A stretch of DNA of 64,000 nt from Nannocystis bainbridge (GCF_028368995.1 NZ_JAQNDL010000004.1:64001-128000), one strand, 5' to 3'; counted from the stretch's first letter, positions 1 through 17,596 are shown. Numbers and translations: made by a program. The notes: generated by a model from the letters alone, not told the origin.

Positions 1-342
1 CACGACGCGGGGGCGGCAGTGGGCGAGCAGGGCGTGCTGCTCGGGCGCGGTCAGCTTGTAGTCGATCGGGACCAGGACGGCGCCGGCCCACAGGGCCCCG
101 GTCGCGCCGATCAGCCACTTCGACTGGTTCTGCATGACGATCGCGCAGCGATCGCCGGGGCCGAAGCCGTGGACCTGCAGGCCGGCGGCGAACCGCTGAG
201 CGGCGACCCGCAGCTCGGCGAAGGTGTGGCGCGAGTTCTCGCGGTGGCGATCGGCCTCGATCAGCGCGGTCCGACTCTTGTACGTGATGGTGGCGTCACG
301 CAGCGCCTCGCCGAGGCAGGACAGCTTTCCCAGGTCGAGCAT
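1..342 (-). CDS. AMP-dependent acyl-CoA synthetase/ligase, N-terminal part (gene continues beyond window start)
   Basis: Minus-strand reading from ATG (cat at 340-342) gives MLDLGKLSCLGEALRDATITYKSRTALIEADRHRENSRHTFAELRV...LVPIDYKLTAPEQ, a typical acyl-CoA ligase N-terminus. The start abuts the ACP stop codon. Confidence 0.55.
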   Translation of the reverse strand, partial: MLDLGKLSCLGEALRDATITYKSRTALIEADRHRENSRHTFAELRVAAQRFAAGLQVHGFGPGDRCAIVMQNQSKWLIGATGALWAGAVLVPIDYKLTAPEQHALLAHCRPRVV

Positions 343-576
343 CTAGCGCCTCGCGTCGATCTTCTGCGCCAGGGCGGCGAACGTCTTGATGCCCTGCAGC
401 TCGTAGTCGGGCAGCTCGACGTCGAACTCGTCCTCGACGTCGGAGATGAGCTCGACGGCCTGGAAGCTGTCGATGCCGAGGTTCTCGAACAGGTCGTCCT
501 CGGCGCGGAGCTTGGCCGGGTCGGCGCCGAAGCGCTTGGCGGCGAGACGGATGAGGGTGCCTACGGTGTCGCTCAT
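343..576 (-). CDS. acyl carrier protein
   Basis: 77 aa with ACP-like LGIDSFQAVELISDVEDEFDVELPD around the phosphopantetheine Ser. ATGA overlap with the upstream gene. Confidence 0.8.
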   Translation of the reverse strand: MSDTVGTLIRLAAKRFGADPAKLRAEDDLFENLGIDSFQAVELISDVEDEFDVELPDYELQGIKTFAALAQKIDARR

Positions 577-1346
577 GGCAGGTACGGTCTCAGGTCGGTG
601 GACTCGACGAAGCGCTGGAGGGCGGCCAGCAGGGCCGGACCCTCGGCGAGGCGGACGAACAGCTCGCGCTCGGCGAGCAGCTCGTCCTTCGGGAGCTTCT
701 TGATGAAGGCCTTGGCGGCCTTGCGCGCGGTGGGATCGAACTTGCCGGTCTGGGCCGCGAGCGCGCGCGCGGCGGTGAGGCCCTCGCCGCTGGCGACGAC
801 CTGGCTGACGAGGCCGGCGGCCTGGGCCCGCTTGGCGTTGATGCTGCGGCCGCTGAGCAGGAGGTCGCGGATGAGGCCGTTGCCGACGTCGCGGCGCAGG
901 CGAGGGATGCCGCCGAAGCCGGGGATGATGCCGAGGCGCAGCTCGGGGAAGCAGAAGCGGGCGGTCTTCTCGGCGATGAGGACGTCGCAGGTGAGCGCGA
1001 GCTCGAAGCCGCCGCCGAAGCAGATGCCGTGCACGACGCCGACGGTGGTCAGCGGCAGCATGTCGAGGTCGTCCATGACGCCGTGGATGGCGTCGATGAA
1101 CTGGCGCAGCTGCGGGCCGTGCTGGTCCCGGGGCGCGTCGCTGAGGCCGCGGTGCAGCTCACGCAGGTCGGCGCCGGCGCAGAAGCCCTGGCGCAGGCCG
1201 CTGCGCACGATCAGGGTGTGCGCGGCCGGATCGACCTGGTCGAGGAAGCGCCGCAGCCCGGCGAGCATGCCGGTGCCGATCTCGTTGCACGGCGGCGCAG
1301 CGAGGGTCAGCTCGTAGACGCCTTCGCTGTAGGTCCAGTCGATCAT
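573..1346 (-). CDS. enoyl-CoA hydratase/isomerase (crotonase family)
   Basis: MIDWTYSEGVYELTLAAPPCNEIG...GFCAGADLRE...GICFGGGFELALTCD crotonase motifs. Start reassigned to internal ATG 1346, which overlaps the upstream stop (ATGA). The upstream Arg-rich extension of the ORF is an artefact. Confidence 0.85.
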   Translation of the reverse strand: MIDWTYSEGVYELTLAAPPCNEIGTGMLAGLRRFLDQVDPAAHTLIVRSGLRQGFCAGADLRELHRGLSDAPRDQHGPQLRQFIDAIHGVMDDLDMLPLTTVGVVHGICFGGGFELALTCDVLIAEKTARFCFPELRLGIIPGFGGIPRLRRDVGNGLIRDLLLSGRSINAKRAQAAGLVSQVVASGEGLTAARALAAQTGKFDPTARKAAKAFIKKLPKDELLAERELFVRLAEGPALLAALQRFVESTDLRPYLP

Positions 1347-2977
1347 GACGCGTAGACCTTGTCGATCTCGGCGCGGTAGCGCTGCTCGACGGCGCGGCGG
1401 CGCAGCTTCTGGTTGGCGGTCAGCAGGGCGTTCTCGATCGTGAACGGCTCGGCGACGCGGACGAAGCCGCGGACCTTCTTGTAGTGCGGGACGCTGGCGT
1501 TGACGACCTCGAGCGCGGCGTCGATCGCCTCCTTGGGCACGTCGCCGGGCACGATGATGCTGAGGTACGGCCGCGCGTGGCCGACGAGCATGCACTGCTC
1601 GGCCTTCGGGCACGCCGCGAGGAACTTCTCCTCGATCGGCTCGGGGGCGATGTTGTGGCCCGACTCGGGGACGAGGATGTTCTTGACGCGGCCGATGATG
1701 CGGACGTTGCCGGTGGCGTCGAGGTCGCCCTGGTCGCCGGTGTGGAACCAGCCGTCCTTGATGGCCTCGGCGGTGGCCTGCTCGCGGCCCCAGTAGCCGG
1801 CGAAGATGCCAGGGCCGCGCACCAGCAGCTCACCCTCGTCGGAGATCTTGATCTCGCAGCCGCCGATGGCGTGGCCGACGTAGCCGGGGCGCACGCCGCC
1901 GGGCTGGTCCATGGTGACGATCGCGGTGGTCTCGGTGAGGCCGTAGACCTGGTAGACCTGCACGCCGACCAGCTCGAACCACCACTGCGTCTCCTCGGCC
2001 AGCGCCGCCGAGCCGCAGATCAGGAACTCGAGGCTGGGGCCGATCTGCTGCTTGATCTTGCTGAAGACCAGCTTCTTGGCGGCGGCCAGAGTGAGCTTGT
2101 CGACGAGGCTCGCCTTGCCCTCGCGCACGGCGCGGAAGGCCGCCTGGCCGCGGTTATAGAGGGCGAGGGCGAGGCCGCCGCGCTCGCCGATCTTCTTGCC
2201 GACGCCGGTCTTGATCCGCTCGAGCACCGCGGGGACGTTGAGGTAGTAGTGCGGGTCGGCGGCGCCCATCTCGGCGACGAGCTGCTGCAGGTCGGTCGAC
2301 AGCAGCAGCGGGTTGCCGCGGTACAGCTGCGTCCACAGCATGATGCGCGAGCCGGCGAAGCAGAACGGCAGGAAGTGGAACACCTTGTCGGCCCGCTGCC
2401 CGCCGGTGATGCGGTCGACGCTGCTGCGGGTCTGCGGCAGCATGTAGTCGACGTTGGCGCGGGTGAGGACGACGCCCTTGGGCTCGCCGCTGGTGCCGGA
2501 GGTGTAAATGATGGTGACCGGGTCGGCGGGCGCGACCGGGCGCGGGGGCTCGTGCACGGGCTCGCCGCGGAGGACGTCGTGGAGGTCCTCGATCGGGCAG
2601 TGCTCGGGCCAGGCGTCGCGCAGGCCGGCGGCGAGCTCGGGGCCGTCGGCGACGACCAGCACCGGCGCGCAGTCCTTGACCATCACCGCCAGCTCCTTGG
2701 GATCCTGGCGGCTGTAGAGCGGGACGACGATGGCGCCCTCGAACAGGATGGCGAGGTCGGCGGCGATCCAGCGCGCCGAGTTGGGCGCGAGCAGGGCGAC
2801 GCGGTCGCCGGGCTTGACGCCGCGGCCGCGGAGGAAGCCGCGCGCGTGAGCGACGAGGTGCAGCAGCTGCGCGGCCGAGGTGGGCCGGCGCTCCTTGCCG
2901 TGGAGCTCGACGAGGAGCTGGTCCTCGCGGGTCTTCTGGATCGCGGCGTGGATGACTTCGAGGAAGTTGTCGCTCAT
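1343..2977 (-). CDS. AMP-dependent synthetase/ligase (long-chain fatty acid-CoA ligase-like)
   Basis: The real protein starts MSDNFLEVIHAA at 2977. Motifs TIIYTSGTSGEPKGV and YGLTETT are present. The N-terminal 440 aa of the 986-aa ORF is an Arg/Pro-rich artefact in the frame of neighbouring genes. Confidence 0.85.
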   Translation of the reverse strand: MSDNFLEVIHAAIQKTREDQLLVELHGKERRPTSAAQLLHLVAHARGFLRGRGVKPGDRVALLAPNSARWIAADLAILFEGAIVVPLYSRQDPKELAVMVKDCAPVLVVADGPELAAGLRDAWPEHCPIEDLHDVLRGEPVHEPPRPVAPADPVTIIYTSGTSGEPKGVVLTRANVDYMLPQTRSSVDRITGGQRADKVFHFLPFCFAGSRIMLWTQLYRGNPLLLSTDLQQLVAEMGAADPHYYLNVPAVLERIKTGVGKKIGERGGLALALYNRGQAAFRAVREGKASLVDKLTLAAAKKLVFSKIKQQIGPSLEFLICGSAALAEETQWWFELVGVQVYQVYGLTETTAIVTMDQPGGVRPGYVGHAIGGCEIKISDEGELLVRGPGIFAGYWGREQATAEAIKDGWFHTGDQGDLDATGNVRIIGRVKNILVPESGHNIAPEPIEEKFLAACPKAEQCMLVGHARPYLSIIVPGDVPKEAIDAALEVVNASVPHYKKVRGFVRVAEPFTIENALLTANQKLRRRAVEQRYRAEIDKVYAS

Positions 2978-4455
2978 GCGTGGCGGTCCAGCAGGCGCTG
3001 CACGTTGGCCGGCAGCGGCGGGAGGTGGGCTTCCCAGGTGCGCGGCAGGTCGCGCCGGGGGAACTGGGGATAGACGCGCACGACCTCGTCCATGAAGTCG
3101 ATGCCCATCTGGCCCATGAGCCGCAGCTGGGCCGGGACGGCGCGGGCGATGTCGGCGCTGATGCCCTCGGCGTCGCGCCACAAGCGGCGCAGGGTGTGCA
3201 GCAGCTTGTCGCCGAGGCCCTCCTCGTCGACCTCGAAGAACATGTCGGGGTGGCCGCGATCGTTCATGAGGTTGCGGATGCGCTCGTCCATGGTGACGCC
3301 GGCGGACGGCACGAGGCCGGGCATCGAGGTGACGATCGCGTGGAAGCGCGAGCTGATCATCATGCTGCAGTTGCGCAGCACGCTGACGAGGTCGTACATG
3401 TCGTGCTCGTCGCTGATGAACAGCGCGCCGCCGCGGTCGAGCCGGGGCAGCAGGTCCTCGCAGGCATGGCGATCGAGCTGCTCCATGCCGACGAGGATGG
3501 TGAAGAAGTCGCGCTCCTGGGCGAACGCGTTGACGCCGTCGGCCAGGGCCTGGATGTACGCGTTGTACTTCTTGTCGGCCGACTCGCTGTGGTGGTGGAA
3601 GTAAAAGGCGCTGTAGTGCTCGTGCTTGTACTGACCGCCGAGCTTGTAGGCGGCGTACTTGAGCAGGTCGGGCTTGACCGGCCACCAGAACGGGTTGATC
3701 GGGCAGACGACGAGGACCTTCTGGCGGCCGTCCCAGCCGGCTTCGCGCAGCAGTTGGGCGCCGCGCGACAGCGGCGCGGGGTCGAAGGTCCAGGCGGTGT
3801 CGGCACCGGAGGTGGTGCGGATGCCGAGCTCGCCGAGGACGTTGCGCGAGGGCTCGTTGCGGCAGATGACCAGAGACTTCTTGCAGGCGTCGCGCACGAA
3901 GTCGCGGAGCGCCGGGGTCATGTTGCCGGCCTCGGCGCCGTAGCCGACGCTGACCTTGTTCTCGGCGTTGGCCAGCCCGAGCGCGCCGGCCATGAAGCAG
4001 GTCAGCGCGCTGGCGAACTTCGACTTGAACATCGAGCCCTCGCAGGCGATGACGCCGTGGTGCTTGGGCACCTCGGTGGCGAGGAACTTCGGGAACACCG
4101 CCGGCATCTCGATCTGATGCACGGTCCGGAAGTAGCCGCGCGTCAGCTGCTCGTCGACGGTCATGATCGACAGCTCGAGGTCGTCGTCGCCGACGACGTG
4201 ACGCAGCTGGCGGATCATCTCCTCGACGCGGACGTCGGCGCCGGTGTTGCGCGTGCCGACGTAGCCGGCGAGCAGCAGCTTGAGCGGCTTGCCCGGCTTC
4301 CACAGCTCGGGCGACATGCCGAGGACGTGGCGGACGGCGACGCCCTCGATGGCGGCGGCGACGGTGGCCTGCAGGGCGCGGTCGGGGTCGACGACGTCCT
4401 TGACCTTGTCCCAGATCTTGCTGGTGGTCTTCTTGACGGGTGCGCTCTTGGACAT
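2974..4455 (-). CDS. polysaccharide pyruvyl transferase family-like protein
   Basis: 493 aa. The N-terminus LLAGYVGTRNTGADVRVEEMIRQL fits the GY.G..N.GD signature of CsaB/WcaK pyruvyl transferases, and the C-terminal SRFHAIV is RLH-like. ATGA overlap with the ligase gene. Confidence 0.5.
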   Translation of the reverse strand: MSKSAPVKKTTSKIWDKVKDVVDPDRALQATVAAAIEGVAVRHVLGMSPELWKPGKPLKLLLAGYVGTRNTGADVRVEEMIRQLRHVVGDDDLELSIMTVDEQLTRGYFRTVHQIEMPAVFPKFLATEVPKHHGVIACEGSMFKSKFASALTCFMAGALGLANAENKVSVGYGAEAGNMTPALRDFVRDACKKSLVICRNEPSRNVLGELGIRTTSGADTAWTFDPAPLSRGAQLLREAGWDGRQKVLVVCPINPFWWPVKPDLLKYAAYKLGGQYKHEHYSAFYFHHHSESADKKYNAYIQALADGVNAFAQERDFFTILVGMEQLDRHACEDLLPRLDRGGALFISDEHDMYDLVSVLRNCSMMISSRFHAIVTSMPGLVPSAGVTMDERIRNLMNDRGHPDMFFEVDEEGLGDKLLHTLRRLWRDAEGISADIARAVPAQLRLMGQMGIDFMDEVVRVYPQFPRRDLPRTWEAHLPPLPANVQRLLDRHA

Positions 4456-4465
4456 GTTCGAAGGG

Positions 4466-5611
4466 CTAGGCTACCTGCCGCACCTGGGCGCCGCCGGGCC
4501 AGGGCTTGTACGGGTAGCTGAAGTTGTTGTCGACCGCGAAGCGGTAGAGGCCGTAGGCGTAGCGGTCGAACGGCGCCGGCGCTTCGCCGAGAGCGTCGAC
4601 GACCCGGCGGTTGTCGAACACGGTGTCGAAGGTCAAGTAAGGCAGGAACACCTTGAGCAGCGAGGCGGGCAGCGACAGGCCCCAGCCGCGCGGGGTGTTG
4701 GAGGCGGTCTCGACGACGCGGTTGAAGGCGCCGTTGAGGCCGGGGACGAAGCGGTGCTTGACCGGGTGGCCGGCGCGCCGCATGGCGTCGACGACCTGGC
4801 GGTAGGTCAGCGAGGCGGTGCCCGAGCTGAGGCTGTAGGCGTCGTGCTCGAGCTTGTCGCGCTGGTGGAGGGTGACGATCGCCTTGGACACGTAGTCGGC
4901 CGGGACGATGTCGAGCCGCCAGTCGGGGTGGAACGGCAGCACCGGCAGCTTGGCGAGCATGACGAAGGCCCGCACCATGTCGAACTGCACGGTCTCGGGG
5001 AACCGGCTGTCGCCGAGCACGATCGACGGGCGCAGGACCAGCTGCTGCACGTCGGGCAGCAGCTCGTGCAGCATGTGCTCGCAGAACTTCTTGGTCCGCG
5101 CGTACGGGTCGTAGTCGGACTTGTCCCAGTCGATCGTGTTGTCCTCGGTGACGACCTCGTGCTTGCGCTCGCCGGCGACCGCGACCGTGCTGATGTCGGT
5201 GAAGCGGCGCAGGCCGTGCAGGTCCCGGGCGTCGCGCGCGAGCTTGAGGACGCTCAGCGTGCCGCGCAGGTTGACGTTGAAGCACGCCTTGGACGACTTG
5301 CGGTTGAGCGACGCGGCGCAGTGGATGACCGAGTCCATGGTCCGGACCAGCCGCTCGCGCGCCTCGGCCTCGAGGCCGAGGCCGGGGAAGGTCAGGTCGC
5401 CGAGGTAGAGGTCGCAGCGGGTGCGGACGAGGTCGAGGAAGCGCGGGAAGTCCATGTGCAGCTGCATGGACTTCCACAGCCGCTGCTCGGCCTCGGCCGG
5501 GTCCTTGGCGCGGACGAGGAGGGCCAGCCGCTCGCTCGGGTACTCGTCGAGCAGGCCGGCGGCGACGTACGAGCCGATGTATCCGGTGGCTCCGGTGAGG
5601 AAGATGGCCAT
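4466..5611 (-). CDS. NAD-dependent epimerase/dehydratase family protein, thioester/acyl reductase-like (NAD_binding_4)
   Basis: [16 protein letters not shown] Rossmann motif and [10 protein letters not shown]. Overall similar to fatty acyl-CoA reductase / male-sterility domain proteins. Confidence 0.75.
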
Positions 5612-5615
5612 GATG

Positions 5616-7301
5616 TCAGACGACCTCGGCGTGGGGCGCGGGCGCGGCCTCGGGGGAGCGCAGGCGGAAGGGGTGGCGCGGAGCGTAGCTCTCGGGGGTC
5701 TTGTTCTCGAACAGCGGGAAGCACCACTTGCGCAGCCCGGGGATGTGGACGTCGATCCAGTAGTGGCGCCAGTCGATGCTGCGCGGGTCGCAGTCCCACT
5801 CGGGCTCGAGCACGGGGTGCCGCAGCAGGTTGCGGGTCACGAACGCGAAGTGGTTGTCGTGGATGAACGGCAGGTAGAGCTCGCACATGCGCTCGATCTT
5901 GTCGATCGACTCGAGCGCGCCCTCGGTGTGCTCGACGAGGTCGCCGAGGCGGCGGCGCACGAACTCCGGCCAGCCCTTCGGCGGGTCGCGCAGCCACTCG
6001 TCGACCGACTCGGTCATCTTGCGGATGTTCTCGATCCGCATCGGGTGCTCGGGCGTGACGGCGATCGCGTCCCAGCGCGACTTGACGACCCGATCGAGGG
6101 TGGTGTCGCCGCGGGTGCGGAGGTGCTTGCGGTGGGCCAGCGCGACCAGCTCGACGGCGCGGTCGATGGTCAGCAGGTTGAGGTCGGAGCTGCCGCTCTG
6201 GTAGACCGGCGCGTGCTCGCCCCGCATCAGCGCGGCGCCGGCGACGGTCATGCCGCGGCAGACGTAGTCGACGGGGATGATGTCGAACGGGTTGCCGCGC
6301 TTGCACGGCAGGTGGCGGAACCAGCTGCCGAGCGCGTAGCTCAGCGGGCCGCAGGTGTTGAAGCCCTGGTTCCACCCGGGGAACGGGTAGCTCATCGAGC
6401 TCTCGACGATCGCCGGGCGGAACATGGTCCAGCGGCCGGGATCGAGGCGGCGGGCGATCCACGCCTCGGCCATGCTCTTGGTGAACGTGTAGATGTTGGT
6501 GAAGCCCCAGCGGCCGGCGCGGCGCTGGCCCTCGGCGACCATCGCGTCCTTGAGCAGGTTGCGCTTGATCCGGCGGGCGGTGTTGCGCACCAACATCGCG
6601 TTGTTCTCGTCGCCGCCCTTGTCGCGGATCTGCTTGACCGCGTCGTCGTGGGCGCGCTTGTCCATCTCGGGCGACTCGTGCTCGGCGAGGATGGCCTCGA
6701 TGCTGGCCTGGATCTCGACGGACTCGGCCTCGACGTCGAACGGGTCGCCGGACGGCGAGAGGTCGGGGCGGATCTCCTCGGGGATGAGGCCGTTGCGCTT
6801 GCCGGTGACGTAGCAGGTCGAGACGTGCAGCATCACCGCCTTGTCGCAGGCGGCGACGAAGTTGGCGGCGTTGCGGGCACCCTCGACGTTGGTCGTCATG
6901 GCGTCGCGCAGGTCGGGGTCGAAGTCGACGAGGCCGGCGCAGTTGATGACGAGGTCGATGTCGCGGCGCAGGCGGGCCAGCACCTCGGGGTCCTCGACGC
7001 CCATGTCGGGCAGCGAGACGTCGCCGGACACGACCTCGATGCGCTCGCTGATGAAGCGGCTCATCTCGGGGCCGTACTTCTCGTGCAGCGGGCGGAAGCA
7101 GGGCGAGGTCTGGACCTGGCGCTCGAACCGGTCGGCGGCCGGGCGCAGGGCCTTCTTGCGGGTGAGCACGTAGACCTTGCCGATGTCCGGCACGTGCTGC
7201 AGCAGCATCGCCAGCCAGACCTTGCCGAGGAAGCCGGTGACTCCGGTGAGCAGGACGTGGCGGCCGGCGTAGCTGTGCTTGATCGAGAGCGGCGTGTTCA
7301 C
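5616..7301 (-). CDS. fatty acyl-CoA reductase (FAR, alcohol-forming)
   Basis: [15 protein letters not shown]...LVINCAG...YTFTK, with a sterile-type C-terminal domain. Start reassigned to GTG 7301, preceded by GGAGGA, because the ATG-extended ORF would overlap the HAD gene. Confidence 0.8.
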
Positions 7302-7329
7302 GGGTGTCCTCCGGTTCCTGTCCCCAAGG

Positions 7330-8007
7330 TCAGTCGCGATAATCGATGATCGGCCAGTCGGCGTCCTTGGCGCTGCGGCGCAGGACGAAGTCGGGGTTGA
7401 CCGCGCACGGGCCACCGACGCGCGACAGCAACAGCATGTCGGGGCCGTGGGCCCCGTAGGCGCTGCAGCGCGCCAGCTCGAGGTCGTGGGCGGCGGCGTA
7501 GTCGTCGAGCCAGCGGCCGCCGACGTTCGAGCCGATGACCGGATCGAGCAGTCTGCCGGTGGCCTCGCTGTCCTCGAACTCGATGCGGTTGTAGACCAGC
7601 TCGTCGTAGTGCTTGAGGTGGCGCGAGAGCGGCTTCATGATCGGCTCGATGCTGTCGGACAGCAGCACGACCCGCCGACCCTCGGCCTTGAGGCGCTTGA
7701 GCAGCTCGACGCCCTGATCGAGGATGGTGTCCTTCAGGACGTCCTCGGCGTACTCCTCGCACAGGACCTCGACGCGGTCCTGGCTCATGCCGCGGATGGC
7801 GAGGTGGGCCAGGCGGTGGGCCAGGGCGCGGTCGGTCTGCCCGAGCAGGCGGTGGACCGGGGCGGCCAGACCGACGAGGCCGAGGCGGACGGCCCGCTCG
7901 CCGAACTTCTTGGCGTTGCCGGCCAGATAGGCCGCCGCGCTGAGCACGCCGCGGGCGAGCAGGATGCCTTCGACGCGGACGAATGCTGCCGTGTTGGTTT
8001 GTGTCAT
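7330..8007 (-). CDS. HAD-IB family hydrolase (phosphoserine-phosphatase-like)
   Basis: MTQTNTAAFVRVEGILLARGV...VVLLSDSIEPIM...AYGAHGPDMLLL HAD motifs. The long upstream ORF extension is discarded. Confidence 0.75.
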   Translation of the reverse strand: MTQTNTAAFVRVEGILLARGVLSAAAYLAGNAKKFGERAVRLGLVGLAAPVHRLLGQTDRALAHRLAHLAIRGMSQDRVEVLCEEYAEDVLKDTILDQGVELLKRLKAEGRRVVLLSDSIEPIMKPLSRHLKHYDELVYNRIEFEDSEATGRLLDPVIGSNVGGRWLDDYAAAHDLELARCSAYGAHGPDMLLLSRVGGPCAVNPDFVLRRSAKDADWPIIDYRD

Positions 8008-8316
8008 CGACCAGGCTCGCGGCCTAGTTAGCGCACCCGAGGCCGGCGTTACAAGCATGCGCGAGGTGACTCGAATGCCTGCGAAGGCCGCTGCGCAGGC
8101 CGGTTTACGCGTGCACGAGGCTTCGCAGGAAGGGCCGTAAACGGGGCCTGGCGCCCTCTCGCGCGGCTTTGGTGGCCTCGGTCGCGTGCGGCCGAGATAG
8201 TTGTGCGCTTGACTAAATAGTTGGTGATGTCGATTGATCGCGCGTTTAAGAAATTCCTTCGCCGTCGCGGCGGTCGGGGCATCACCGGTGGGACGCGCGT
8301 CGAGGTGCGCTATCGT

Positions 8317-8952
8317 GTGGCCGTGACCGCCCCGCTGCTCGTGTGCGCCGCCGAGGTCGAGGGCCGCGGGCTGGCCTCGCCGCTGTACCTCGGGGTCGGC
8401 AAGGTCGCGGCGGCGGTGGCGATGACGCGGGCGCTGCTCGAGCGGCGGCCGGCGTGGGTGCTGCTGTTCGGGGTCTGCGGCGCCTATCCCGAAGGACATG
8501 GCCCCGGGGGCAGGCTCGACGTCGGCGACGTGTGCCTGGTCGGCGACGAGTGGCTGGGCGACGAGGGGGTCGCGGTCGACGACGGGTTTTTGACGCTGGC
8601 GCAGCTGGGCCTGGGCTCGGTCGGGCCGCTCATGGCCGATGGCGGGCGCACGGCCGCGGCGGCGCGCTCGCTCGGGGCGCCGATCGTGCGCGGGGCGACG
8701 GTCAGCGGCTGCAGCGGGACGGACGCGAGCTCGCGGGCGCTGGCCGGGCGGACCGGGGCGACGGTGGAGACGATGGAGGGCGCAGCGGTGGCGTGGGCCT
8801 GCGCGGCCGCGGGGGTGCCGTGGGTGCAGCTGCGCTGCGTGAGCAACCGGACCGGCCAGCGCGCCGCTGGCGGGTGGGACCTGCCGCGCGCGGTGGCCGG
8901 GGTGCAGGCGGCGCTGCAGCGACTGCAGGCCGCAGACTGGGGGAACGAATGA
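8317..8952 (+). CDS. mqnB: futalosine hydrolase (MTA/SAH nucleosidase family, MqnB)
   Basis: MTAN-like ...VAVTAPLLVCAAEVEG...TMEGAAVAWACAAAGVPWVQLRCVSN. Start is uncertain. GTG 8317 follows GAGGTG; the alternatives are TTG 8221 or ATG 8227. Confidence 0.65.
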   Translation: MAVTAPLLVCAAEVEGRGLASPLYLGVGKVAAAVAMTRALLERRPAWVLLFGVCGAYPEGHGPGGRLDVGDVCLVGDEWLGDEGVAVDDGFLTLAQLGLGSVGPLMADGGRTAAAARSLGAPIVRGATVSGCSGTDASSRALAGRTGATVETMEGAAVAWACAAAGVPWVQLRCVSNRTGQRAAGGWDLPRAVAGVQAALQRLQAADWGNE

Positions 8953-9767
8953 GCGAGCCGCTGCCGATCGGGTTCTCGCCGTGTCCGAACGACACGTGGA
9001 TGTTCGACGCGCTGGTCCGGGTGCCGGAGTTCGTGCCGGGGCTGCGGCCGCTGCCGTGGCTGGCCGACATCGAGGCGCTCAACGAGCGCGCGCTGGCCGG
9101 CGAGGCGCCGCTGCCGGTGACGAAGCTGAGCGCGCACGGGCTGTATTGGGTCGAGCGCGACTACCTGGTCTTGCGGACAGGTGCGGCGCTGGGCCGCGGC
9201 TGCGGGCCGCTGGTGGTGGCCCGCGAGAAGGCCGAGCTGGCGGCGCTGGCCGGGCGCAAGATCGCCATCCCGGGGGCCTATACGACCGCGCACCTGCTGC
9301 TCCGCTGCTTCGCGCCGGCGTCGGCGACGGTGGTGCCGATGCGCTTCGATCGCATCATGCCGGCGGTGGCGGCCGGGGAGGTCGACGCGGGGCTGGTGAT
9401 CCACGAGGCGCGGTTCGTGTTCCGCGACCACGGGCTCGAGCAGGTGGCGGACCTCGGCGAGGTGTGGGAGGCGGCCACGGGGCTGCCGCTGCCGCTGGGG
9501 GTGATCGCGGCCCATCGCTCGCTGCCGGCCGGGCAGGTGCGCGCGGTCGAGGAGGCGATCGCCCGCTCGATCGCGGCGGCGGAGGCGGACCCGGCCGCGG
9601 CGTGGCCGTTCGTCAAGGCGCACGCGCAGGAGCTGAGCGACGAGGTGTGCCGGCAGCACATCGCGCTGTACGTCAACGAGTTCTCGCGCGACATGGGCGC
9701 GGAGGGCGCGGCGGCGCTCGAGGAGCTGCGGCGGCGCGGGCAGGCGGCCGGGCTGCTGCCGCGCTGA
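8949..9767 (+). CDS. mqnD: 1,4-dihydroxy-6-naphthoate synthase (MqnD)
   Basis: MSEPLPIGFSPCPNDTWMFDALV... MqnD signature. ATGA overlap with mqnB. The long ORF 8343-9767 upstream of the ATG is artefactual. Confidence 0.8.
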   Translation: MSEPLPIGFSPCPNDTWMFDALVRVPEFVPGLRPLPWLADIEALNERALAGEAPLPVTKLSAHGLYWVERDYLVLRTGAALGRGCGPLVVAREKAELAALAGRKIAIPGAYTTAHLLLRCFAPASATVVPMRFDRIMPAVAAGEVDAGLVIHEARFVFRDHGLEQVADLGEVWEAATGLPLPLGVIAAHRSLPAGQVRAVEEAIARSIAAAEADPAAAWPFVKAHAQELSDEVCRQHIALYVNEFSRDMGAEGAAALEELRRRGQAAGLLPR

Positions 9768-9816
9768 GGGGGCGAGGTTGTCGCGCCGGGGGGCGGACCT
9801 CGGCGAGGCGAGCGTC

Positions 9817-9906
9817 ATCGGGCATATCGCCGAGGACATGCCGTCGGGGCATGCTCCTCAGGACATGATGTCGAGGACATGTCGCGCGGGACATGTCCTG
9901 AAAGGA
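9817..9906. repeat. cluster of GGACATGTCC-family palindromic repeat units
   Basis: gaggacatgcc / ggggcatgctcc / aggacatgatgtcgaggacatgtcgcgcgggacatgtcctgaaagg, in the convergent junction between mqnD and the ABC ATPase. Confidence 0.8.
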
Positions 9907-9907
9907 C

Positions 9908-10678
9908 TCAGGGGGCCAGGGCCTCGAAGTAGAGGCGGCCGTCTCGCTCCTGGGCCTGCACGCCGAAGGCCGCGCCGAGGAGCTCGGGGCTGAAGACGTC
10001 GCCGCAGGGGCCGACGCGGGCGCGGCCGGCGGCGAGCAGGATGGCGTCGTCGGCGTGGCGGCGGGCGAGGTCGAGGTCGTGCTCGGCGACGAGCACGGCC
10101 ACGCCCTCGCGCGCGAGGGTCCGCAGGTGGCGGTAGAGGCCGAGCGCGTGGCCGATGTCGAGGCCGGCGGCCGGCTCGTCGAGGATGACCACGGCGGCCT
10201 CGGCGGCGAGCATGCGCGCGAGCATGACGCGCTGGCGCTCGCCGCCGCTGAGCCGGCCGATCGGGCGGTCGGCGAAGGCGGTCAGGCCGAGGCGCGCGAG
10301 CGCGGCGTCGGCGGCGTCGGCGTCGGCGGCGCGCGGCGGACCGAAGCGGGGAAGGTTGGGCAGACGGCCGAGGAGGACGACCTCCCGCACGTGGAGGTCG
10401 AACTCGACGGGGGAGTGCTGCGGCAAATAGGCGAGCCGGCGAGCGCGAGCCGACGGGGCGAGCTCGGCGAGGCGGTCGCCGAGCAGCTCGACGTGGCCGG
10501 CCTGCGGACGGTCGAGGCCGGCGAGGGTGCGCAGCAGGGTCGACTTGCCGGCGCCGTTGGGGCCGGCGACCACGCAGATCCGTCCCCGGCGGAGATCGAG
10601 GTCGAGGGCCTCGTAGAGGACCCGCTCGGCGAGCCGACAGGTCAGGCCGCGAGCGGCGAGGGCGGGCGCCTCGGTCAT
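9908..10678 (-). CDS. ABC transporter ATP-binding protein (FecE/HmuV-like)
   Basis: Walker A GPNGAGKST, signature LSGGERQRV and Walker B ILDEPAAGLD. Start at MTEAPALAARGL, ATG 10678. Confidence 0.8.
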   Translation of the reverse strand: MTEAPALAARGLTCRLAERVLYEALDLDLRRGRICVVAGPNGAGKSTLLRTLAGLDRPQAGHVELLGDRLAELAPSARARRLAYLPQHSPVEFDLHVREVVLLGRLPNLPRFGPPRAADADAADAALARLGLTAFADRPIGRLSGGERQRVMLARMLAAEAAVVILDEPAAGLDIGHALGLYRHLRTLAREGVAVLVAEHDLDLARRHADDAILLAAGRARVGPCGDVFSPELLGAAFGVQAQERDGRLYFEALAP

Positions 10679-10787
10679 GCAGGGCATTAATAGGAGGGAG
10701 GTGGGGGGGCCGGGCAAGCCCGCAGGCAAGAGGTGGCGCACGCGCGGGTGCGGGCGCGGCGGCGCGGGATCGACTAGTGTTCGCCGC

Positions 10788-12731
10788 ATGTCGCTCGTCC
10801 AGCTCAGGGCCAGCAAGACGGCGCCGCCGCGAGACCTGCGGGCGTTCCTGCCGATGACGCGCGAGGAGATGGACGCGCGCGGCTGGGACGAGCTCGACGT
10901 GCTCCTCATCAACGGCGACGCCTACGTCGACCACCCGGCGTTCGGCGGGGCGCTGATCGGGCGGTTCCTCGAGGGCCGCGGGCTGCGGGTCGGGATGATC
11001 GCGCAGCCGCGCTGGGATGACCCGCAGGACATCTCGCGGCTGGGCCGGCCGCGGCTGTTCGTCGGCATCACCGCCGGCAACCTCGACTCGATGCTGAACA
11101 AGCTGACGGCGCAGAAGAAGATGCGCGGCGAGGATCAATACTCGCCCGACGGCGCGCTCGAGCAGCGGCCGAACCGCGCCAGCATCGTCTACTCGAACCT
11201 GGCCCGGCAGGCGTTCCCGGGGCTGCCGGTGGTGCTCGGCGGCATCGAGGCGAGCCTGCGGCGGATCGCCCACTTCGACTACTGGAGCGACCAGGTGCGC
11301 CGCAGCGTGTTGGTCGACAGCAAGGCCGACTTGCTGATCTTCGGCATGGGCGAGCGGCCGGTGTGGGAGGTCGCGCGGCGGCTCAAAGCCGGCGAGGACA
11401 TCAGCACGATCCGCGACGTCCGCGGCACCGCGGTGATGCTGCCGAAGGGCCAGTGGGAGAGCCTGCCGAAGAGCCGCTACGTGCGCGACGGGCTGACGCT
11501 GCACCTGCCGAGCTTCGAGGCGGTGAGCGTCGACAAGGACGCGTTCCTCGAGATGTCGCGGGCGTTCCAGCACGAGACCAACCCGGGCAACGGGCGGCCG
11601 ATGATCCAGCCGCACGGCGACCGGGCGCTCTACTGCAACCCGCCGGCGTACCCGCTCGAGATGCGCGACATGGACGCGCTCTACGACCTGCCGTTCGTGC
11701 GCCGGCCGCACTGGACCTACGCGGGCAGCAAGATCCCCGCGTTCGAGACGGTCAAGCACTCGATCGTGACGATGCGCGGCTGCTTCGGCGGCTGCACGTT
11801 CTGCTCGATCACCGAGCACGAGGGCCGCATCATCCAGTCGCGCTCGGCCGAGAGCGTGCTGCGGGAGATCCGGACGCTGCGGCGCATGGACGACTTCCGC
11901 GGCGTGATCTCGGACGTCGGCGGGCCGACGGCCAACATGTACCGGATGCGCTGCAAGAGCGAGCAGATCGAGAGCGCGTGCCGCAAGCTGTCGTGCGTGC
12001 ACCCGGGCGTGTGCGAGAACCTCGACACCGACCACGGGCCGCTGGTCGACCTGCTGAAGAAGGTGCGCAAGTCCGAGGGTGTGCGGCGCGTCTTCATCGC
12101 CTCCGGCGTGCGCTACGACCTGGCAGAACGATCTCCGGCGTTCATCCGCGAGCTCGCCACGCATCACACCGGCGGACAATTGTCCGTGGCGCCCGAGCAC
12201 GTGAAGGACGACGTGCTCGCCAAGATGAAGAAGCCCGGGGTCGCCAGCTACGAGCGCTTCGCCGAGCAGTTCACGTGCGCGAGCGAGGCCGCGGGCAAGG
12301 ACCAGCACCTGGTGCCGTACTTCATCTCCGGGCACCCCGGCAGCACGCTCGACGACATGGTCGATCTCGCGCTGTGGCTCAAGGCGCGAGGCGTACGGCC
12401 ACGGCAGGTCCAGGACTTCATCCCCACGCCGATGAGCATGGCGACCTGCATGTACCACACGGGCCGCGATCCGTTCACGCGCGAGCCGGTCTACACGGCC
12501 AAGGAGCTGCGCGAGAAGAAGCTGCAGAAGTCGCTCCTTCTTTACTGGGATCCAGCGCAGCACCACCTCGCCCGCGAGGCGCTGCGGCGAGCGGGACGGC
12601 AAGGGCTCATCGGTCACGCGCCGTCGTGTCTGGTGCCGCCGGAGGGAGGAGGAGCGACGCGTACACACGGCGCGTCGTCTGTCCCCAACACCAGGCGGCC
12701 GCGGCGCGGGCTCGGGGCCGCCGGGCCGTGA
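10788..12731 (+). CDS. ygiQ: YgiQ family radical SAM protein (UPF0313)
   Basis: FLPMTREEMDARGWDELDVLLINGDAYVDHPAFG... and the CFGGCTFC radical-SAM cysteine motif. Start at ATG 10788, MSLVQL. Confidence 0.85.
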   Translation: MSLVQLRASKTAPPRDLRAFLPMTREEMDARGWDELDVLLINGDAYVDHPAFGGALIGRFLEGRGLRVGMIAQPRWDDPQDISRLGRPRLFVGITAGNLDSMLNKLTAQKKMRGEDQYSPDGALEQRPNRASIVYSNLARQAFPGLPVVLGGIEASLRRIAHFDYWSDQVRRSVLVDSKADLLIFGMGERPVWEVARRLKAGEDISTIRDVRGTAVMLPKGQWESLPKSRYVRDGLTLHLPSFEAVSVDKDAFLEMSRAFQHETNPGNGRPMIQPHGDRALYCNPPAYPLEMRDMDALYDLPFVRRPHWTYAGSKIPAFETVKHSIVTMRGCFGGCTFCSITEHEGRIIQSRSAESVLREIRTLRRMDDFRGVISDVGGPTANMYRMRCKSEQIESACRKLSCVHPGVCENLDTDHGPLVDLLKKVRKSEGVRRVFIASGVRYDLAERSPAFIRELATHHTGGQLSVAPEHVKDDVLAKMKKPGVASYERFAEQFTCASEAAGKDQHLVPYFISGHPGSTLDDMVDLALWLKARGVRPRQVQDFIPTPMSMATCMYHTGRDPFTREPVYTAKELREKKLQKSLLLYWDPAQHHLAREALRRAGRQGLIGHAPSCLVPPEGGGATRTHGASSVPNTRRPRRGLGAAGP

Positions 12732-12880
12732 ACCACTCGGACCGATGGCCGCGCCGGCCGGGTCCGAACGCCGCGCCGACGTCGTCCGAAGAGGTTCGCC
12801 CGCGCCCCCGCTAGATCACGTTCAAGCGCGAGGACGGTAGTTCCGCGTCACAGCCGAGATGGCTAAGATGCCCCAACTTT

Positions 12881-13654
12881 ATGACGATGATGCGGCGTGC
12901 GACGCGAGTGTTGGCGACTGTCACTGTGATCTCGAGCCTGGCTGCCTGTGAATCGCTGCTCGAGCCGAAGACCAAGGTCGCGCTGGCCATTTCGCATCAC
13001 GGCACGCGCAACACCAGCGGGGTCCTGCCGAACTACGGCGAGCCCGACGCGGCCCGCGTGTTCGTCAACGACATGGGCTGGGAGGTCAACCTCGCCGAGG
13101 GCGTCATCGTGATGACCGCGGCCCAGGTCGAGTCGTGCGCCGGCGAGAGCTTCGACTTCGAGCTGCCGTACGGCCCGTTCCCCGAGTACCAGCTGTCGCA
13201 GGATCAGGACCTCGTCGACTTCGCCTCCGTCGAGCTGCCCGAAGGGACATATTGCAAGCTGCGCGTCGAGTACGGCCGCTACCAGTCGTCGCTGGCCGAG
13301 CAGGCGTTCGACACGCCGTACGCGCTCAAGGGCCACGCGCAGGTCGAGGGGCTGACGGTCTATCTGGCCGGCACGGCGAAGGATCCGTCGGGCAAGCACG
13401 AGGGCGCCAACTGGAAGTTCCAGACCAACCAGACCAGCATCGTCGAGCTCGACCTCAGCAAGGCCGAGGACGGGCGGCCGTTCGCGATCACGGGCAAGGA
13501 GCCGGGCGGCAGGGCGCTGACGGTCGCCAAGACCTATGACGCGTTCTTCCGCGGGATCGATTTCGCGGACTACGACACCGAGGCGGTGAGCGGCCGCCTG
13601 CTCGAGGTGCTCAACGCCGACACGTACGTGCGCGTCGGCTCCCAGATCTTCTGA
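12881..13654 (+). CDS. hypothetical lipoprotein
   Basis: Signal peptide with lipobox (LAAC). No recognised domain. AT-richer 5' region. Confidence 0.55.
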   Translation: MTMMRRATRVLATVTVISSLAACESLLEPKTKVALAISHHGTRNTSGVLPNYGEPDAARVFVNDMGWEVNLAEGVIVMTAAQVESCAGESFDFELPYGPFPEYQLSQDQDLVDFASVELPEGTYCKLRVEYGRYQSSLAEQAFDTPYALKGHAQVEGLTVYLAGTAKDPSGKHEGANWKFQTNQTSIVELDLSKAEDGRPFAITGKEPGGRALTVAKTYDAFFRGIDFADYDTEAVSGRLLEVLNADTYVRVGSQIF

Positions 13655-14528
13655 GCCCGGCCAGCGCCATCAGCACGCACAGGCCGAGCGCGCCGCCGGT
13701 GTCACCACCGGCGGCGCAGCTGCATCCGTCGTCGCGGTTCGGGTCGGTGACCAGGCAGTCGCACGCCTCGCAGGTGTCGGTGCGGAGGTCGACACCTGTC
13801 TCTTGGTTCAGCCAGCACAGGGCGGCGTACGGGATGGCGTAGAAGCCGCCCTTGCCGCACGTGTAGCCGCGCGAGGTGACGCCCGCGAGCACGACCTCGC
13901 CGGTGCGGAGGGTGACGAACGCGGGGCCGCCGGAGTCGCCCTGGCACGAGTCCTGGCCGTCGCCGCCGGCCTGAAACTCGAGGCCGGTCGCGCTGAAGCG
14001 GACGATCTCGACCTCGACCTGGCGCTTGAAGCCGTTGAGGTTCTTCTCGTCGTCGCCGAAGCCGACCACGGTGATCGGGGCGCCGATGTACATGGCGTCG
14101 TCCCAGTCGGCCTGGGCGGTGAGCGGCCGCGTCGGCGAGACGCCGGCGAGCGGCTCCTCGAGCTCGACGTAGCCGTAGTCCCAGATGTCGACCTTGCACA
14201 CGTCGGTGTCGGTGCCGCAAAACTCGGGATGCGAGCCGTGGCCGGCGACGGCGACGACCTGCTGGAAGTCGGACCACACGTCGTCGCCGACGACGACGTG
14301 CATGCGCGCGGGCGAGGGGTTGCTGTCGAGGCAGTGCGCGGCGGTCAGCACGATCGTCGGGCTGACGAGCGTGCCGGTGCACATGGTGTCGCCGATGAGG
14401 ATCGCCACGGTGCTCGACCACGAGCCCGGCGCGACCTTCTCCCCGCCGTAGATCGGCGTGGGCGCGGGCACGGGCGCGGTCCACGGAGTCGGCGAAGCGA
14501 GGAGGGCGACGAGGCCGAGCTGCAACAT
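13611..14528 (-). CDS. secreted trypsin-like serine protease (S1) with MYXO-CTERM-like tail
   Basis: Signal peptide. TAAHC (His) and GDSGGP (Ser) catalytic motifs. The C-terminal DDGCSCAAGG...LGLCVLMALAGLRRSGSRR matches the Cys motif, hydrophobic stretch and basic tail of the MYXO-CTERM sorting signal. Confidence 0.8.
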   Translation of the reverse strand: MLQLGLVALLASPTPWTAPVPAPTPIYGGEKVAPGSWSSTVAILIGDTMCTGTLVSPTIVLTAAHCLDSNPSPARMHVVVGDDVWSDFQQVVAVAGHGSHPEFCGTDTDVCKVDIWDYGYVELEEPLAGVSPTRPLTAQADWDDAMYIGAPITVVGFGDDEKNLNGFKRQVEVEIVRFSATGLEFQAGGDGQDSCQGDSGGPAFVTLRTGEVVLAGVTSRGYTCGKGGFYAIPYAALCWLNQETGVDLRTDTCEACDCLVTDPNRDDGCSCAAGGDTGGALGLCVLMALAGLRRSGSRRARTCRR

Positions 14529-15966: not shown

Positions 15967-15973
15967 GACCGAT

Positions 15974-16052: not shown

Positions 16053-16093
16053 GCGGTGCGGGCAGGCAGGGGCGCCAACCCGCGGGCGACAGG

Positions 16094-17596
<1,503 letters not shown>

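Follow-up and report, generated by a model that had tools for sequence, protein, structure and literature searches.

Positions 1-8007 of the window, by which we mean the whole 64-kb stretch of DNA that was analysed, are occupied by eight co-directional genes on the minus strand, numbered here from g8 (the first of the operon) down to g1. Frame analysis and Pfam searches bore out what an earlier note on this DNA had said of the number, direction and domain content of these genes, and a third-position GC of 0.93-1.00 assigned a single minus-strand frame to each of them (8/8). The same note described the genes as joined mostly by ATGA overlaps, which was an overstatement: such overlaps are found at 3/7 junctions (g5/g4, g4/g3 and g3/g2), and at the remaining four the genes stand 0-28 nt apart. 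Upstream of g8, the intergenic region that extends to a divergent PNP_UDP_1 gene (8008-8220) shows no coding signal in the frame plot and is presumed to hold the promoter; a sigma-70 consensus was not found in this region, nor was a terminator-like site on the operon strand found within 1-8400. The divergent gene itself (8221-8949, plus strand) belongs to the phosphorylase superfamily and is unrelated to the operon.

Domain assignments of the encoded proteins

Two of the genes encode reductases. The product of g7 (7301-5616, minus strand; GTG start with GGAGGA 7 nt upstream) is a 561-aa fatty acyl-CoA/ACP reductase (FAR), and that of g6 (5611-4466, minus strand) is a 381-aa stand-alone thioester reductase; the NAD_binding_4 assignments proposed earlier held for both, at 172 bits for g7 and 146 bits for g6. 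The Sterile domain of g7 reached 19.2 bits against a cut-off of 35.4. The g6 protein also matched the Epimerase model and, below the respective cut-offs, the thioester-reductase model TIGR01746 (132 bits) and a carboxylic acid reductase model (62 bits).

The first gene, g8 (8007-7330, minus strand), encodes a 225-aa protein of the HAD-IB fold that matches Pfam HAD at 64.5 bits and falls short of TIGR01490 (62 bits; cut-off 98). In motif I (DxDxT) the sequence is F-V-R-V-E-G-I, where Arg stands at the position of the nucleophilic Asp, and motif IV (GDxxxD) reads GAHGPD, so that g8 departs from the pattern of motif I Asp and motif IV acidic residues that marks HAD phosphatases. In 17/17 aligned orthologues motif I is (F/W)R(V/A/L)EG, and motif IV is again GAHGPD or its region is absent. 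With the catalytic Asp replaced by Arg in all orthologues examined, g8 is catalytically degenerate and probably not the HAD phosphatase that it had been taken for. A Streptomyces FAR::HAD fusion, encoded beside an AGPS-like gene, retains D-L-E-R-T and GDSHSD; g8 is 32% identical to its HAD half, and g7 is 32% identical too.

The ligase encoded by g4 (2977-1343, minus strand; 544 aa), an optional member of the operon, is an acyl-CoA ligase with AMP-binding (209 bits) and AMP-binding_C_3 domains. That encoded by g1 (342-1, minus strand) is a 571-aa adenylate-forming ligase of which the N-terminal 114 aa lie inside the window and the remainder past its edge, the fragment matching AMP-binding at 73 bits. 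Adjoining g1 is g2 (576-343, minus strand), which encodes a dedicated acyl carrier protein (ACP) of 77 aa (PP-binding, 51 bits) with the phosphopantetheine Ser conserved in (G)I(D/N)S. The 257-aa product of g3 (1346-573, minus strand) is a crotonase-type enoyl-thioester hydratase (ECH_1, 119 bits), whose assignment to the crotonase-type enoyl-CoA hydratases agrees with a catalytic Glu pair (GGGFELA, FPELRLG) kept in 13 sequences from all phyla, including that of a minimal cluster described below (L085). Both g4 and g6 give sub-threshold matches to the carboxylic acid reductase model NF041592.

The unusual member of the operon is g5 (4455-2974, minus strand), which encodes a 493-aa pyruvyl-transferase-like GT-B enzyme. 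A comparison of this protein (2974-4455) with the pyruvyl-transferase HMM had been named in the earlier note as a check that could refute its reading, and the protein passes, matching PS_pyruv_trans (PF04230) at 46.4 bits against a gathering cut-off of 25.3. Profile searches matched it to pyruvyl-transferase models only, the others being CsaB (66 vs 213 bits) and WcaK (18 vs 399 bits), both below their equivalog cut-offs. The protein has the GT-B-like two-Rossmann fold and the motifs of PF04230, including the C-terminal S/T-R-x-H, and its motifs GS.F, R..S, DTAW and SRxH align with those of E. coli WcaK, than which it is about 60-90 residues longer, with extra N- and C-terminal helices. The hhalign probability for g5 against WcaK is only 31%, and the solved folds nearest to g5 are ordinary glycosyltransferases and UDP-GlcNAc 2-epimerases. 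From motif conservation alone, we infer that g5 would use PEP.

Extent and conservation of the operon

Comparison with related loci indicates that the window holds eight of the ten genes, and hence the larger part, of a conserved operon predicted to build a lipid. In Nannocystis exedens (91-97% aa identity) the operon goes on with a YegS-type lipid kinase and then a PlsC-type acyltransferase. In strain DSM 71 (L001), the rest of g1 (full length of 571 aa at 14114-15826, 97% identity) is followed by a kinase of the YegS/Rv2252/BmrU family (DAGK_cat and YegS_C domains; TIGR00147 at 148.6 bits against a cut-off of 118.65) and a PF01553 acyltransferase. The statement in the earlier note that no acyltransferase is present is therefore wrong for the whole operon, an artefact of the operon running past the window edge.

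The ten-gene set is syntenic in Myxococcota, Acidobacteriota and Bdellovibrionota. The same gene order recurs in most of 80 GTDB loci from different phyla, which argues that the arrangement is more than chance, and it was also found in a MAG labelled Planctomycetes, from an independent gene call and precomputed Pfam matches. The operon is common to Nannocystis, many other Myxococcota and soil Acidobacteriota, with abundant occurrences among the uncultured Terriglobia and Blastocatellia of soil. When genes were counted only over GTDB loci with enough flank (65 for g8, g7 and g6; 56 for the others), the neighbour most tightly linked to g5 was g6 (60/65), with g8 present in 57/65 and FAR (g7) upstream of g5 in 57/65; g1 was present in 43/56, g3, g2 and the kinase in 42/56 each, and the acyltransferase in 32/56. 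The acyl-CoA ligase g4 is missing from about 11 syntenic loci.

Members of the g5 orthologous group (above about 47% identity) always lie among fatty-acyl activation and reduction genes, across phyla. In the 80 loci the neighbours are FAR, reductase, ligases, crotonase (ECH), ACP, lipid kinase and acyltransferase; no glycosyltransferase, flippase, polymerase or other glycan-assembly gene is conserved near g5 orthologues, and the setting is not that of a glycan, capsule or cell-wall glycopolymer locus, in agreement with the earlier view of the locus as lipid-type and not polysaccharide. Across the syntenic loci no sugar-nucleotide synthesis gene is conserved nearby, and the conserved gene set includes no acyl-CoA dehydrogenase or desaturase able to supply an enoyl substrate. 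A tblastn search of the window and all fetched loci with a Streptomyces AGPS-like query found no AGPS gene (FAD_binding_4 plus FAD-oxidase_C).

Several of these genes are fused in other lineages. In Pseudobacteriovorax (P0415; NRA66965.1) a FAR::g5 fusion, in which the Sterile domain is listed without a weak mark, is followed by ECH, ACP and ligase, and this arrangement defines a minimal core with no adjacent acyltransferase or kinase. The minimal cluster L085 keeps a g1-type ligase, with g6, kinase and acyltransferase not adjacent. Elsewhere, a g4-type acyl-CoA ligase is fused to the C-terminus of a g5 homologue (P0174), and this g5::ligase fusion is followed by a g6 homologue of 32% identity in a locus from which the crotonase is absent (L087). 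In Acidobacteriota the HAD-like protein and FAR are fused in frame, the HAD-like domain being truncated there. Given that g5 passes the HMM, always occurs amid fatty-acyl genes and is fused to FAR, an enolpyruvyl or ether-forming transfer onto a lipid, as first suggested in the earlier note, would be the best available reading of its function.

A proposed pathway and its alternatives

The best explanation for these observations is that the operon would make a fatty-alcohol-derived, probably ether-type, glycerolipid by way of g5, to which we assign a probability of roughly 40%. This value is a compromise between claims of decreasing certainty: it is likely that the operon serves lipid synthesis and that g5 works on what FAR produces, we would put at even odds that an ether lipid is made, and the exact route from PEP to glycerol is doubtful.

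In the proposed pathway, FAR (g7) and its degenerate HAD-like partner g8 would supply a fatty alcohol by reducing an activated fatty acid. Pyruvyl transferases attack C2 of PEP, and with a mono-alcohol acceptor g5 would give an enol ether and not a ketal; g5 and PEP would place an enolpyruvyl group onto the fatty alcohol, and the resulting 2-alkoxyacrylate would be an enol ether comparable to the one formed by MurA. Its carboxylate would become a thioester through an adenylating ligase (g1 with the ACP g2, or g4 with CoA), the crotonase g3 would hydrate the C=CH2 group (cf. methacrylyl-CoA) to give a 2-O-alkyl-glyceroyl thioester, and the second reductase, g6, would reduce this to an O-alkylglycerol. 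The lipid kinase and PlsC-type acyltransferase past the window's left edge would then form alkyl-acyl-glycerophosphate. The presence of two ligases and two reductases fits two different thioester substrates; moreover, the Glu pair of the crotonase is conserved yet the gene set has no dehydrogenase or desaturase for an enoyl substrate, and the enolpyruvyl C=C would supply one.

Since g5 is linked to a fatty-acid reductase, in some lineages by outright fusion, ether-type lipids may be made here along a previously undescribed route; the literature searched gave no description of this operon or of its proposed pathway. In its fullest form, the proposal is that, in bacteria without canonical ElbD and AGPS, the three-carbon backbone of ether lipids would derive from PEP, not from glycerol phosphate or DHAP, with the fatty-alcohol enolpyruvyl ether made by g5 passing through a thioester, crotonase hydration and reductive release to an O-alkylglycerol (predicted 2-O-alkyl) that is phosphorylated and acylated, a chain that we regard as unlikely when taken whole. 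If it is true, the operon, given its abundance in uncultured Terriglobia and Blastocatellia of soil, could also provide acidobacterial membrane lipids with ether bonds under aerobic conditions. Counting against the proposed pathway are the low hhalign probability of g5 to WcaK and its nearest solved folds; in addition, the alkyl group would sit at O-2 of the glycerol in this route but is at O-1 in the ether lipids known from myxobacteria (PMC9131029). Since g4 is missing in about 11 lineages, L085 has no adjacent g6, kinase or acyltransferase and L087 has no crotonase, part of the pathway must be shared or come from elsewhere. The model also leaves g8, the degenerate HAD-like protein, without an explained role, which counts against it.

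Instead, the ether bond could arise without g5, in an ether-lipid pathway like that of Elb or AGPS; FAR, ligase, ACP and acyltransferase would then be a disaggregated ElbD, and g5 would only decorate the product, for instance by converting the free vicinal hydroxyls of an alkyl- or acyl-glycerol into a pyruvate ketal, which would make the lipid anionic. In favour of this scenario, the canonical reaction of PF04230 enzymes is to form ketals, e.g. on the 4,6-diol of hexoses. The FAR::HAD fusion in the Streptomyces AGPS-type cluster favours it as well, as does the overlap in domain inventory with elbA-E (PMC9131029). We nevertheless consider it improbable: the strictly conserved crotonase would be left without a role, as would the second reductase and ligase, a central position for g5 and not one in late decoration is indicated by the FAR::g5 fusion and by the minimal core, AGPS is absent from every locus examined, and canonical elb is reported not to be conserved in Nannocystis (PMC12224551).

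The product could also be a lipid based on an alkane-1,3-diol (or 3-hydroxy fatty alcohol), for which the ligase and ACP would take up an enoyl or 3-hydroxy acid, a 3-hydroxyacyl thioester would arise through the crotonase, the reductases would produce the 1,3-diol and g5 would form a cyclic pyruvate ketal. This scheme uses the canonical ketal chemistry of g5 on a 1,3-diol and agrees with the minimal core ligase-ACP-ECH-FAR::g5, and would also accommodate the g5::ligase fusion, provided that the carboxylate of the ketal is activated afterwards; it is quite improbable, however, as the conserved set has no dehydrogenase or desaturase to make the enoyl substrate and the ketal leaves no hydroxyl for the conserved kinase and PlsC-type acyltransferase. 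We know of no ketal 1,3-diol lipid reported in these phyla.

A comparably long shot is that g5 is a GT-B transferase with a nucleotide-activated donor (sugar, glycerol-phosphate or similar) that is not PEP-dependent, the operon yielding a fatty-alcohol or alkylglycerol glycolipid; against this, g5 sequence profiles match pyruvyl-transferase models only, its family motifs align with WcaK, and there is no conserved sugar-nucleotide synthesis gene nearby. Chance adjacency, with g5 pyruvylating a polysaccharide beside an unrelated fatty-alcohol or wax-ester module, has behind it the Pfam family name and source annotations ('polysaccharide pyruvyl transferase WcaK-like'), but it is effectively refuted by synteny across phyla and in-frame fusions of g5 to FAR and to ligase, and the neighbourhoods hold no conserved glycosyltransferase, flippase or polymerase genes.

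Comparison with known systems

By domain type, the operon resembles M. xanthus elbA-E (MIBiG BGC0000871), whose inventory comprises HAD, FAR, ACS, ACP, AT and NAD-binding proteins (PMC9131029), in having a HAD-IB-type protein, FAR, adenylating ligase, ACP, PlsC-type acyltransferase and NAD-binding reductase. The host is in both cases in Myxococcota, and the ether-forming step is known for neither the operon nor elb (PMC9131029). The resemblance to Elb drawn in the earlier note thus stands for overlapping domain types, on separate polypeptides, and does not extend to collinearity with ElbD (FAR-ACS-ACP-AT): ElbD is one polypeptide (FAR-ACS-ACP-AGPAT), whereas here the four domains lie in another order on g7, g1 or g4, g2 and the acyltransferase past the window, with other genes between them, and no ElbD-like ORF was found in the 64-kb window. 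The core of the operon has, in addition, a crotonase, a lipid kinase and g5, for which no elb counterpart is described (PMC9131029). We liken g8 to ElbB (HAD-IB) and g6 to ElbA/ElbE (NAD-binding) by domain type only, g8 being without the catalytic Asp; ElbC is listed as of 'unknown function'. According to a 2025 pan-genome preprint (PMC12224551), Nannocystis, Polyangium and Sorangium are among the genera that do not conserve the canonical VEPE/elb cluster; with this and no AGPS nearby, the operon is not shown to be elb, which it resembles in domain content.

The AGPS-type pathway (FAR, GNPAT/AGPAT and alkyl-DHAP synthase; MXAN_1676-1674) shares with the operon FAR and a PlsC-type acyltransferase, and the predicted AGPS-type cluster on a plasmid of Streptomyces sp. 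NBC_01562 (L082) likewise has a FAR partnered with a HAD-IB domain. Unlike that pathway, the operon has no FAD-linked AGPS in the window or the fetched loci, and has instead g5, crotonase, ligase/ACP and a second reductase. Like WcaK, CsaB and Pvg1p (PF04230), g5 passes the Pfam model, has a GT-B-like fold and, for WcaK, aligning motifs; unlike polysaccharide pyruvyl transferases, it never lies in a polysaccharide locus and is fused to FAR or acyl-CoA ligase in some lineages. In composition, g1 or g4 together with g2 and g6 match a carboxylic acid reductase (A-T-R) that has been split over separate polypeptides.

For the chemistry proposed here, MurA/MurB and EPSP synthase offer a parallel in the formation of an enolpyruvyl ether from PEP on a hydroxyl group, and MoeO5 forms the 2-O-alkyl-3-phosphoglycerate ether of moenomycin, in which the C2 position of a three-carbon acid carries an ether-bound lipid. 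The parallels are limited to mechanism, the folds and families being unrelated to g5 and no homology being claimed. Crotonase hydrates methacrylyl-CoA; the 2-alkoxyacrylate substrate proposed for g3 is hypothetical, and the crotonase active site of g3 is complete.

Gene content and extent of the lipid operon

The window DNA has a G+C content of about 70%, and reading frames were therefore picked by third-position GC. Positions 1-8007 carry eight minus-strand genes with GC3 values of 0.93-1.00, which encode, in order of transcription, a HAD-like protein (g8, 8007-7330, Pfam HAD); a fatty acyl reductase, FAR (g7, 7301-5616), which has a GTG start with GGAGGA 7 nt upstream and matches NAD_binding_4 and, weakly, Sterile; a second reductase (g6, 5611-4466, NAD_binding_4); a pyruvyl-transferase-like protein (g5, 4455-2974, PS_pyruv_trans); an acyl-CoA ligase (g4, 2977-1343, AMP-binding and AMP-binding_C_3); a crotonase (g3, 1346-573, ECH_1); an ACP (g2, 576-343, PP-binding); and an adenylate-forming ligase (g1, 342-1, AMP-binding), of which only the first 114 residues lie inside the window. 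The earlier note had described eight co-directional genes with these domains, and every domain was borne out by Pfam; the pyruvyl-transferase HMM that it proposed as a check on the 2974-4455 protein was passed with 46.4 bits (cut-off 25.3). An NCBIfam search of g1-g8 gave an equivalog-level match for none of them. The 4-nt ATGA overlaps, which had been taken to prevail, are found at only three of the seven junctions, the remaining junctions having gaps of 0-28 nt. No terminator-like site was found on the operon strand, and scanning for promoter and terminator consensus sequences gave no useful information. A 213-nt spacer lies 5' of g8, followed by a divergent phosphorylase-superfamily gene.

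The other 56 kb of the window holds ordinary myxobacterial genes and no ElbD-like or AGPS-like (alkyl-DHAP synthase) ORF. Next to the operon, at 8221-9868, a frame plot favours plus-strand frames at 8221-8949 (PNP_UDP_1) and 8981-9868 (no Pfam match), both overlapped by a 457-aa minus-strand ORF (8487-9857) that likewise has no Pfam match. A YgiQ-type radical SAM protein (10617-12728, plus strand; Radical_SAM_N 417 bits, DUF3362) has an open frame that overlaps that of an opposite-strand ABC ATPase (9911-10921) by about 300 nt. In the minus-strand stretch 44122-49774, a serine hydroxymethyltransferase gene (48506-49774) has immediately downstream of it genes for a FabF-like ketoacyl synthase (47297-48502) and a FAD-dependent halogenase-like protein (44122-45351). 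Long ORFs lacking a Pfam match occur at 16097-17620 (-), 12815-13651 (+), 40375-42504 (-), 52986-53813 (+) and 60661-61659 (+), mostly with GC3 of 0.90-0.96; the one at 40375-42504 (710 aa, GC3 0.85) overlaps a Maf-like gene on the opposite strand. Three plus-strand Ser/Thr protein kinases (23908-25992, 31285-33351 and 49689-52952) include one that carries PEGA and another with numerous TPR repeats.

All eight operon proteins share 91-97% identity with those of N. exedens DSM 71 and N. pusilla Na p29, and g5 is 95-96% identical to its counterparts in these two strains and in Nannocystis sp. RBIL2. At the N. exedens locus g1 is 571 aa long, and the operon goes on directly with a gene for a DAGK_cat/YegS_C lipid kinase that scores above the TIGR00147 cut-off (148.6 bits, cut-off 118.65) and then with one for a PF01553 acyltransferase. 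The lack of an acyltransferase gene, which the first reading had remarked on, therefore comes from where the window happens to end. Just past this acyltransferase (17667-18986) lies a gene for a 440-aa ADYC-domain protein (PF20032, 205 bits), which follows the operon only in N. exedens, N. pusilla and strain RBIL2.

Conservation and gene fusions across phyla

A survey with one genome for each species gave relatives of g5 in at least 369 stretches, and the best 80 of these loci were studied. Their sources are Nannocystaceae, Paraliomyxa, Sandaracinaceae, Polyangiales, Bradymonadia, Bdellovibrionota, many Terriglobia and Blastocatellales (Acidobacteriota), and a few other bins. Upon searching with the ten operon proteins by tblastn, we found the same co-directional order in most of the 80 loci. 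Among loci with sufficient flank upstream of g5, g8 and g7 were each present in 57 of 65 and g6 in 60; downstream, with 56 loci counted, the numbers were 38 for g4, 42 each for g3, g2 and the lipid kinase, 43 for g1 and 32 for the acyltransferase. About 11 loci have no g4, and in some, unrelated genes part a g8-g7-g6-g5 module from a g4-g3-g2-g1-kinase-acyltransferase module. The sole other recurrent neighbour is a TetR regulator (15 loci). An independent gene call with precomputed Pfam matches gave the same picture for another MAG. In nine related loci (L020, at 12935-16087, is one) the lipid operon is split by a kinase resembling the TPR-repeat kinase of the window.

The search with g5 itself reached more than 7000 clusters (90% identity) at E <= 0.001, with scoring limited to 8000 candidates. 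Searches with g5 homologues likewise gave thousands of such clusters, nearly all from uncultured soil or sediment bacteria, and clustering the family at 50% leaves 266 representatives with E < 1e-30. The best 120 matches listed from each of three homology searches contained close orthologues from MAGs only, with no cultured brGDGT-producing acidobacterium or Sandaracinus amylolyticus among them. Two cluster look-ups of 20 high-GC representatives yielded the names Amycolatopsis and Paraburkholderia and no others. A tblastn search of plasmids with g5 gave no match.

Several loci carry fusions of operon genes. A 1014-aa protein of Pseudobacteriovorax sp. (NRA66965.1) joins FAR to g5, with residues 4-493 sharing 30% identity with g7 and residues 562-998 sharing 47% with g5; it is followed by a crotonase, an ACP and a g1-type ligase, an arrangement that defines a minimal core. 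A second fusion (P0174, 967 aa) joins g5 to a g4-type ligase. Its cluster continues with a homologue of g6 (32% identity), then a multi-pass membrane protein, an SDR and a 1093-aa protein that bears AMP-binding and NAD_binding_4. The membrane protein of this variant cluster (L087, 4534-5256) has 240 aa and no Pfam match, and lies between the g6-like reductase and the SDR. These fusions physically link g5 to FAR on one side and to an adenylating enzyme, then a thioester reductase, on the other.

The FAR of Acidobacteriota carries the HAD-like domain at its N-terminus as an in-frame fusion, and the reverse order occurs on a Streptomyces plasmid in a protein with 32% identity to both g7 and g8. 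This plasmid (Streptomyces sp. NBC_01562, NZ_CP109358.1, linear, 697 kb) carries at 9084-16274 an AGPS-like FAD oxidase, a PlsC-type acyltransferase, an SDR and the 771-aa FAR(+Sterile)-HAD-IB fusion, with ferritin-like genes at the flanks; the set is predicted to be a eukaryote-type ether-lipid cluster.

More distant g5-like subfamilies (33-45% identity) have NRPS or TPP-enzyme surroundings, and the lipid link is therefore limited to the g5 orthologous group. Such proteins lie at 10001-11383 of L088, 9001-10458 of L089 and 9001-10446 of L090 (loci from other genomes, with Paraburkholderia nemoris among the hosts), beside NRPS megasynthases, thioesterases and TPP-dependent enzymes. The wider clade is suggested to act on small molecules rather than polysaccharides.

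A candidate ether-forming enzyme and its partners

The public label of g5, polysaccharide pyruvyl transferase, is contradicted by its gene context. The AlphaFold model of g5 is confident (pLDDT 87) and has a GT-B fold. In a profile-to-sequence comparison, g5 and E. coli WcaK align (E 5e-4, probability 31%) with the motif pairs EGSMF/GGSFF, RNEPS/RESVS, DTAW/DTAW and SSRFH/GTRLH, and the aligned g5 residues are invariant in 36 homologues and also present in both g5 fusion proteins. Single-sequence and profile searches against PDB chains gave no significant match. We regard g5 as a candidate for ether formation whose family is nowhere tied to lipids in the literature searched; full-text searches found no paper that links pyruvyl transferases to FAR or ether lipids, or that brings PEP/enolpyruvyl chemistry into the synthesis of ether lipids.

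Among the partners, the crotonase keeps both catalytic glutamates in every lineage and the ACP retains its serine. The reductase g6 is similar to thioester reductases of the stand-alone kind; together with the ACP and a ligase, it makes up the set of components of a carboxylic acid reductase in split form. The HAD-like protein had been taken for a phosphatase. In place of motif I (DxDxT), every aligned orthologue has (F/W)R(V/A/L)EG, with Arg where the nucleophilic Asp should be, while the motif IV region is GAHGPD in Myxococcota and absent in Acidobacteriota; these changes make a phosphatase role very unlikely. Unlike g8, the Streptomyces fusion retains the acidic residues. The protein g8 looks like a conserved non-catalytic partner of FAR.

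The hydratase site is intact, yet the core lacks an enzyme that would form an enoyl thioester and contains two ligases and two reductases, which is the basis for the route proposed here as the most likely one. FAR would produce a fatty alcohol, onto which g5 would move the enolpyruvyl group of PEP, the use of PEP being our assumption. MurA and EPSP synthase form an enol ether from PEP on a hydroxyl, and with a single hydroxyl g5 would likewise stop at this stage, giving no ketal. A ligase would then make the thioester, and the crotonase would add water to C=CH2, by analogy with the known crotonase-type hydration of methacrylyl-CoA. Reduction of the thioester to the alcohol by g6 would yield an O-alkylglycerol, which the kinase and acyltransferase would convert to an ether analogue of phosphatidic acid. 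The chain of fusions (FAR with g5, g5 with ligase, then reductase) and the local gene order g5-g4-g3 fit this order of steps. Weak points are the predicted 2-O-alkyl regiochemistry, set against 1-O-alkyl in known myxobacterial lipids, the dispensability of g4 in some lineages, variant clusters without some steps, and a scheme that gives g8 no step. We put the chance that the operon encodes a novel route to a lipid backbone at roughly one in five.

A less likely rival reading makes g5 a late decorator forming a ketal, and the fusion of g5 to FAR speaks against it. In another, the product is a 1,3-diol ketal lipid. A third takes g5 for a glycosyl-type transferase, against which profile searches with g5 returned matches to pyruvyl-transferase models only.

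Should the PEP route prove right, glycerolipid backbones would have a new origin and the pyruvyl-transferase fold a new type of reaction; should it prove wrong, the operon nevertheless specifies a conserved lipid not yet described. The operon bears on how aerobic bacteria form the ether bond in the ElbD-dependent route and on how Acidobacteria make the ether-linked lipids behind brGDGT palaeoclimate proxies (PMC9131029, PMC10087280, PMC11868695). It is widespread and compact, includes a candidate enzyme for ether formation and is found in Nannocystis and Paraliomyxa, which can be cultured, so the question becomes directly testable.

Relation to elb and other known systems

We rate the operon as a member of the bacterial fatty-alcohol/ether-lipid gene clusters. 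No AGPS-like gene was found in the window or any fetched locus, and the literature searched contained no report of ether-lipid or alkylglycerol content in Nannocystis. The Caulobacter ceramide-phosphoglycerate genes cpgA-D, considered as a relative for the lipid kinase and C3-acid head group, were ruled out: CpgA resembles PgsA, and CpgC lacks any conserved domain.

The Myxococcus xanthus ether-lipid operon comprises elbA and elbE (NAD-dependent epimerase-family proteins), elbB (HAD-like), elbC (unknown function) and elbD, a multidomain FAR-ACS-ACP-AGPAT protein (PMC9131029). Compared by domain content alone, the two operons have domain types in common; they are not collinear, and the crotonase, kinase and g5 belong to the core of the present operon. 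The Elb resemblance drawn in the earlier note holds at the level of domain types. Overall its observation is confirmed and its interpretation is supported in part.

A review cites elbD homologues in all three suborders (PMC9131029). According to a 2025 preprint, the canonical VEPE/elb cluster is conserved in Myxococcia and not in Nannocystis, Polyangium or Sorangium, and is absent from representatives of Enhygromyxa, Sandaracinus and Pseudenhygromyxa (PMC12224551). The groups that bear the present operon (Nannocystaceae, Sandaracinaceae, Polyangiales) are thus largely complementary to those with elb, a pattern at the level of groups that is suggestive of the operon functionally replacing elb.
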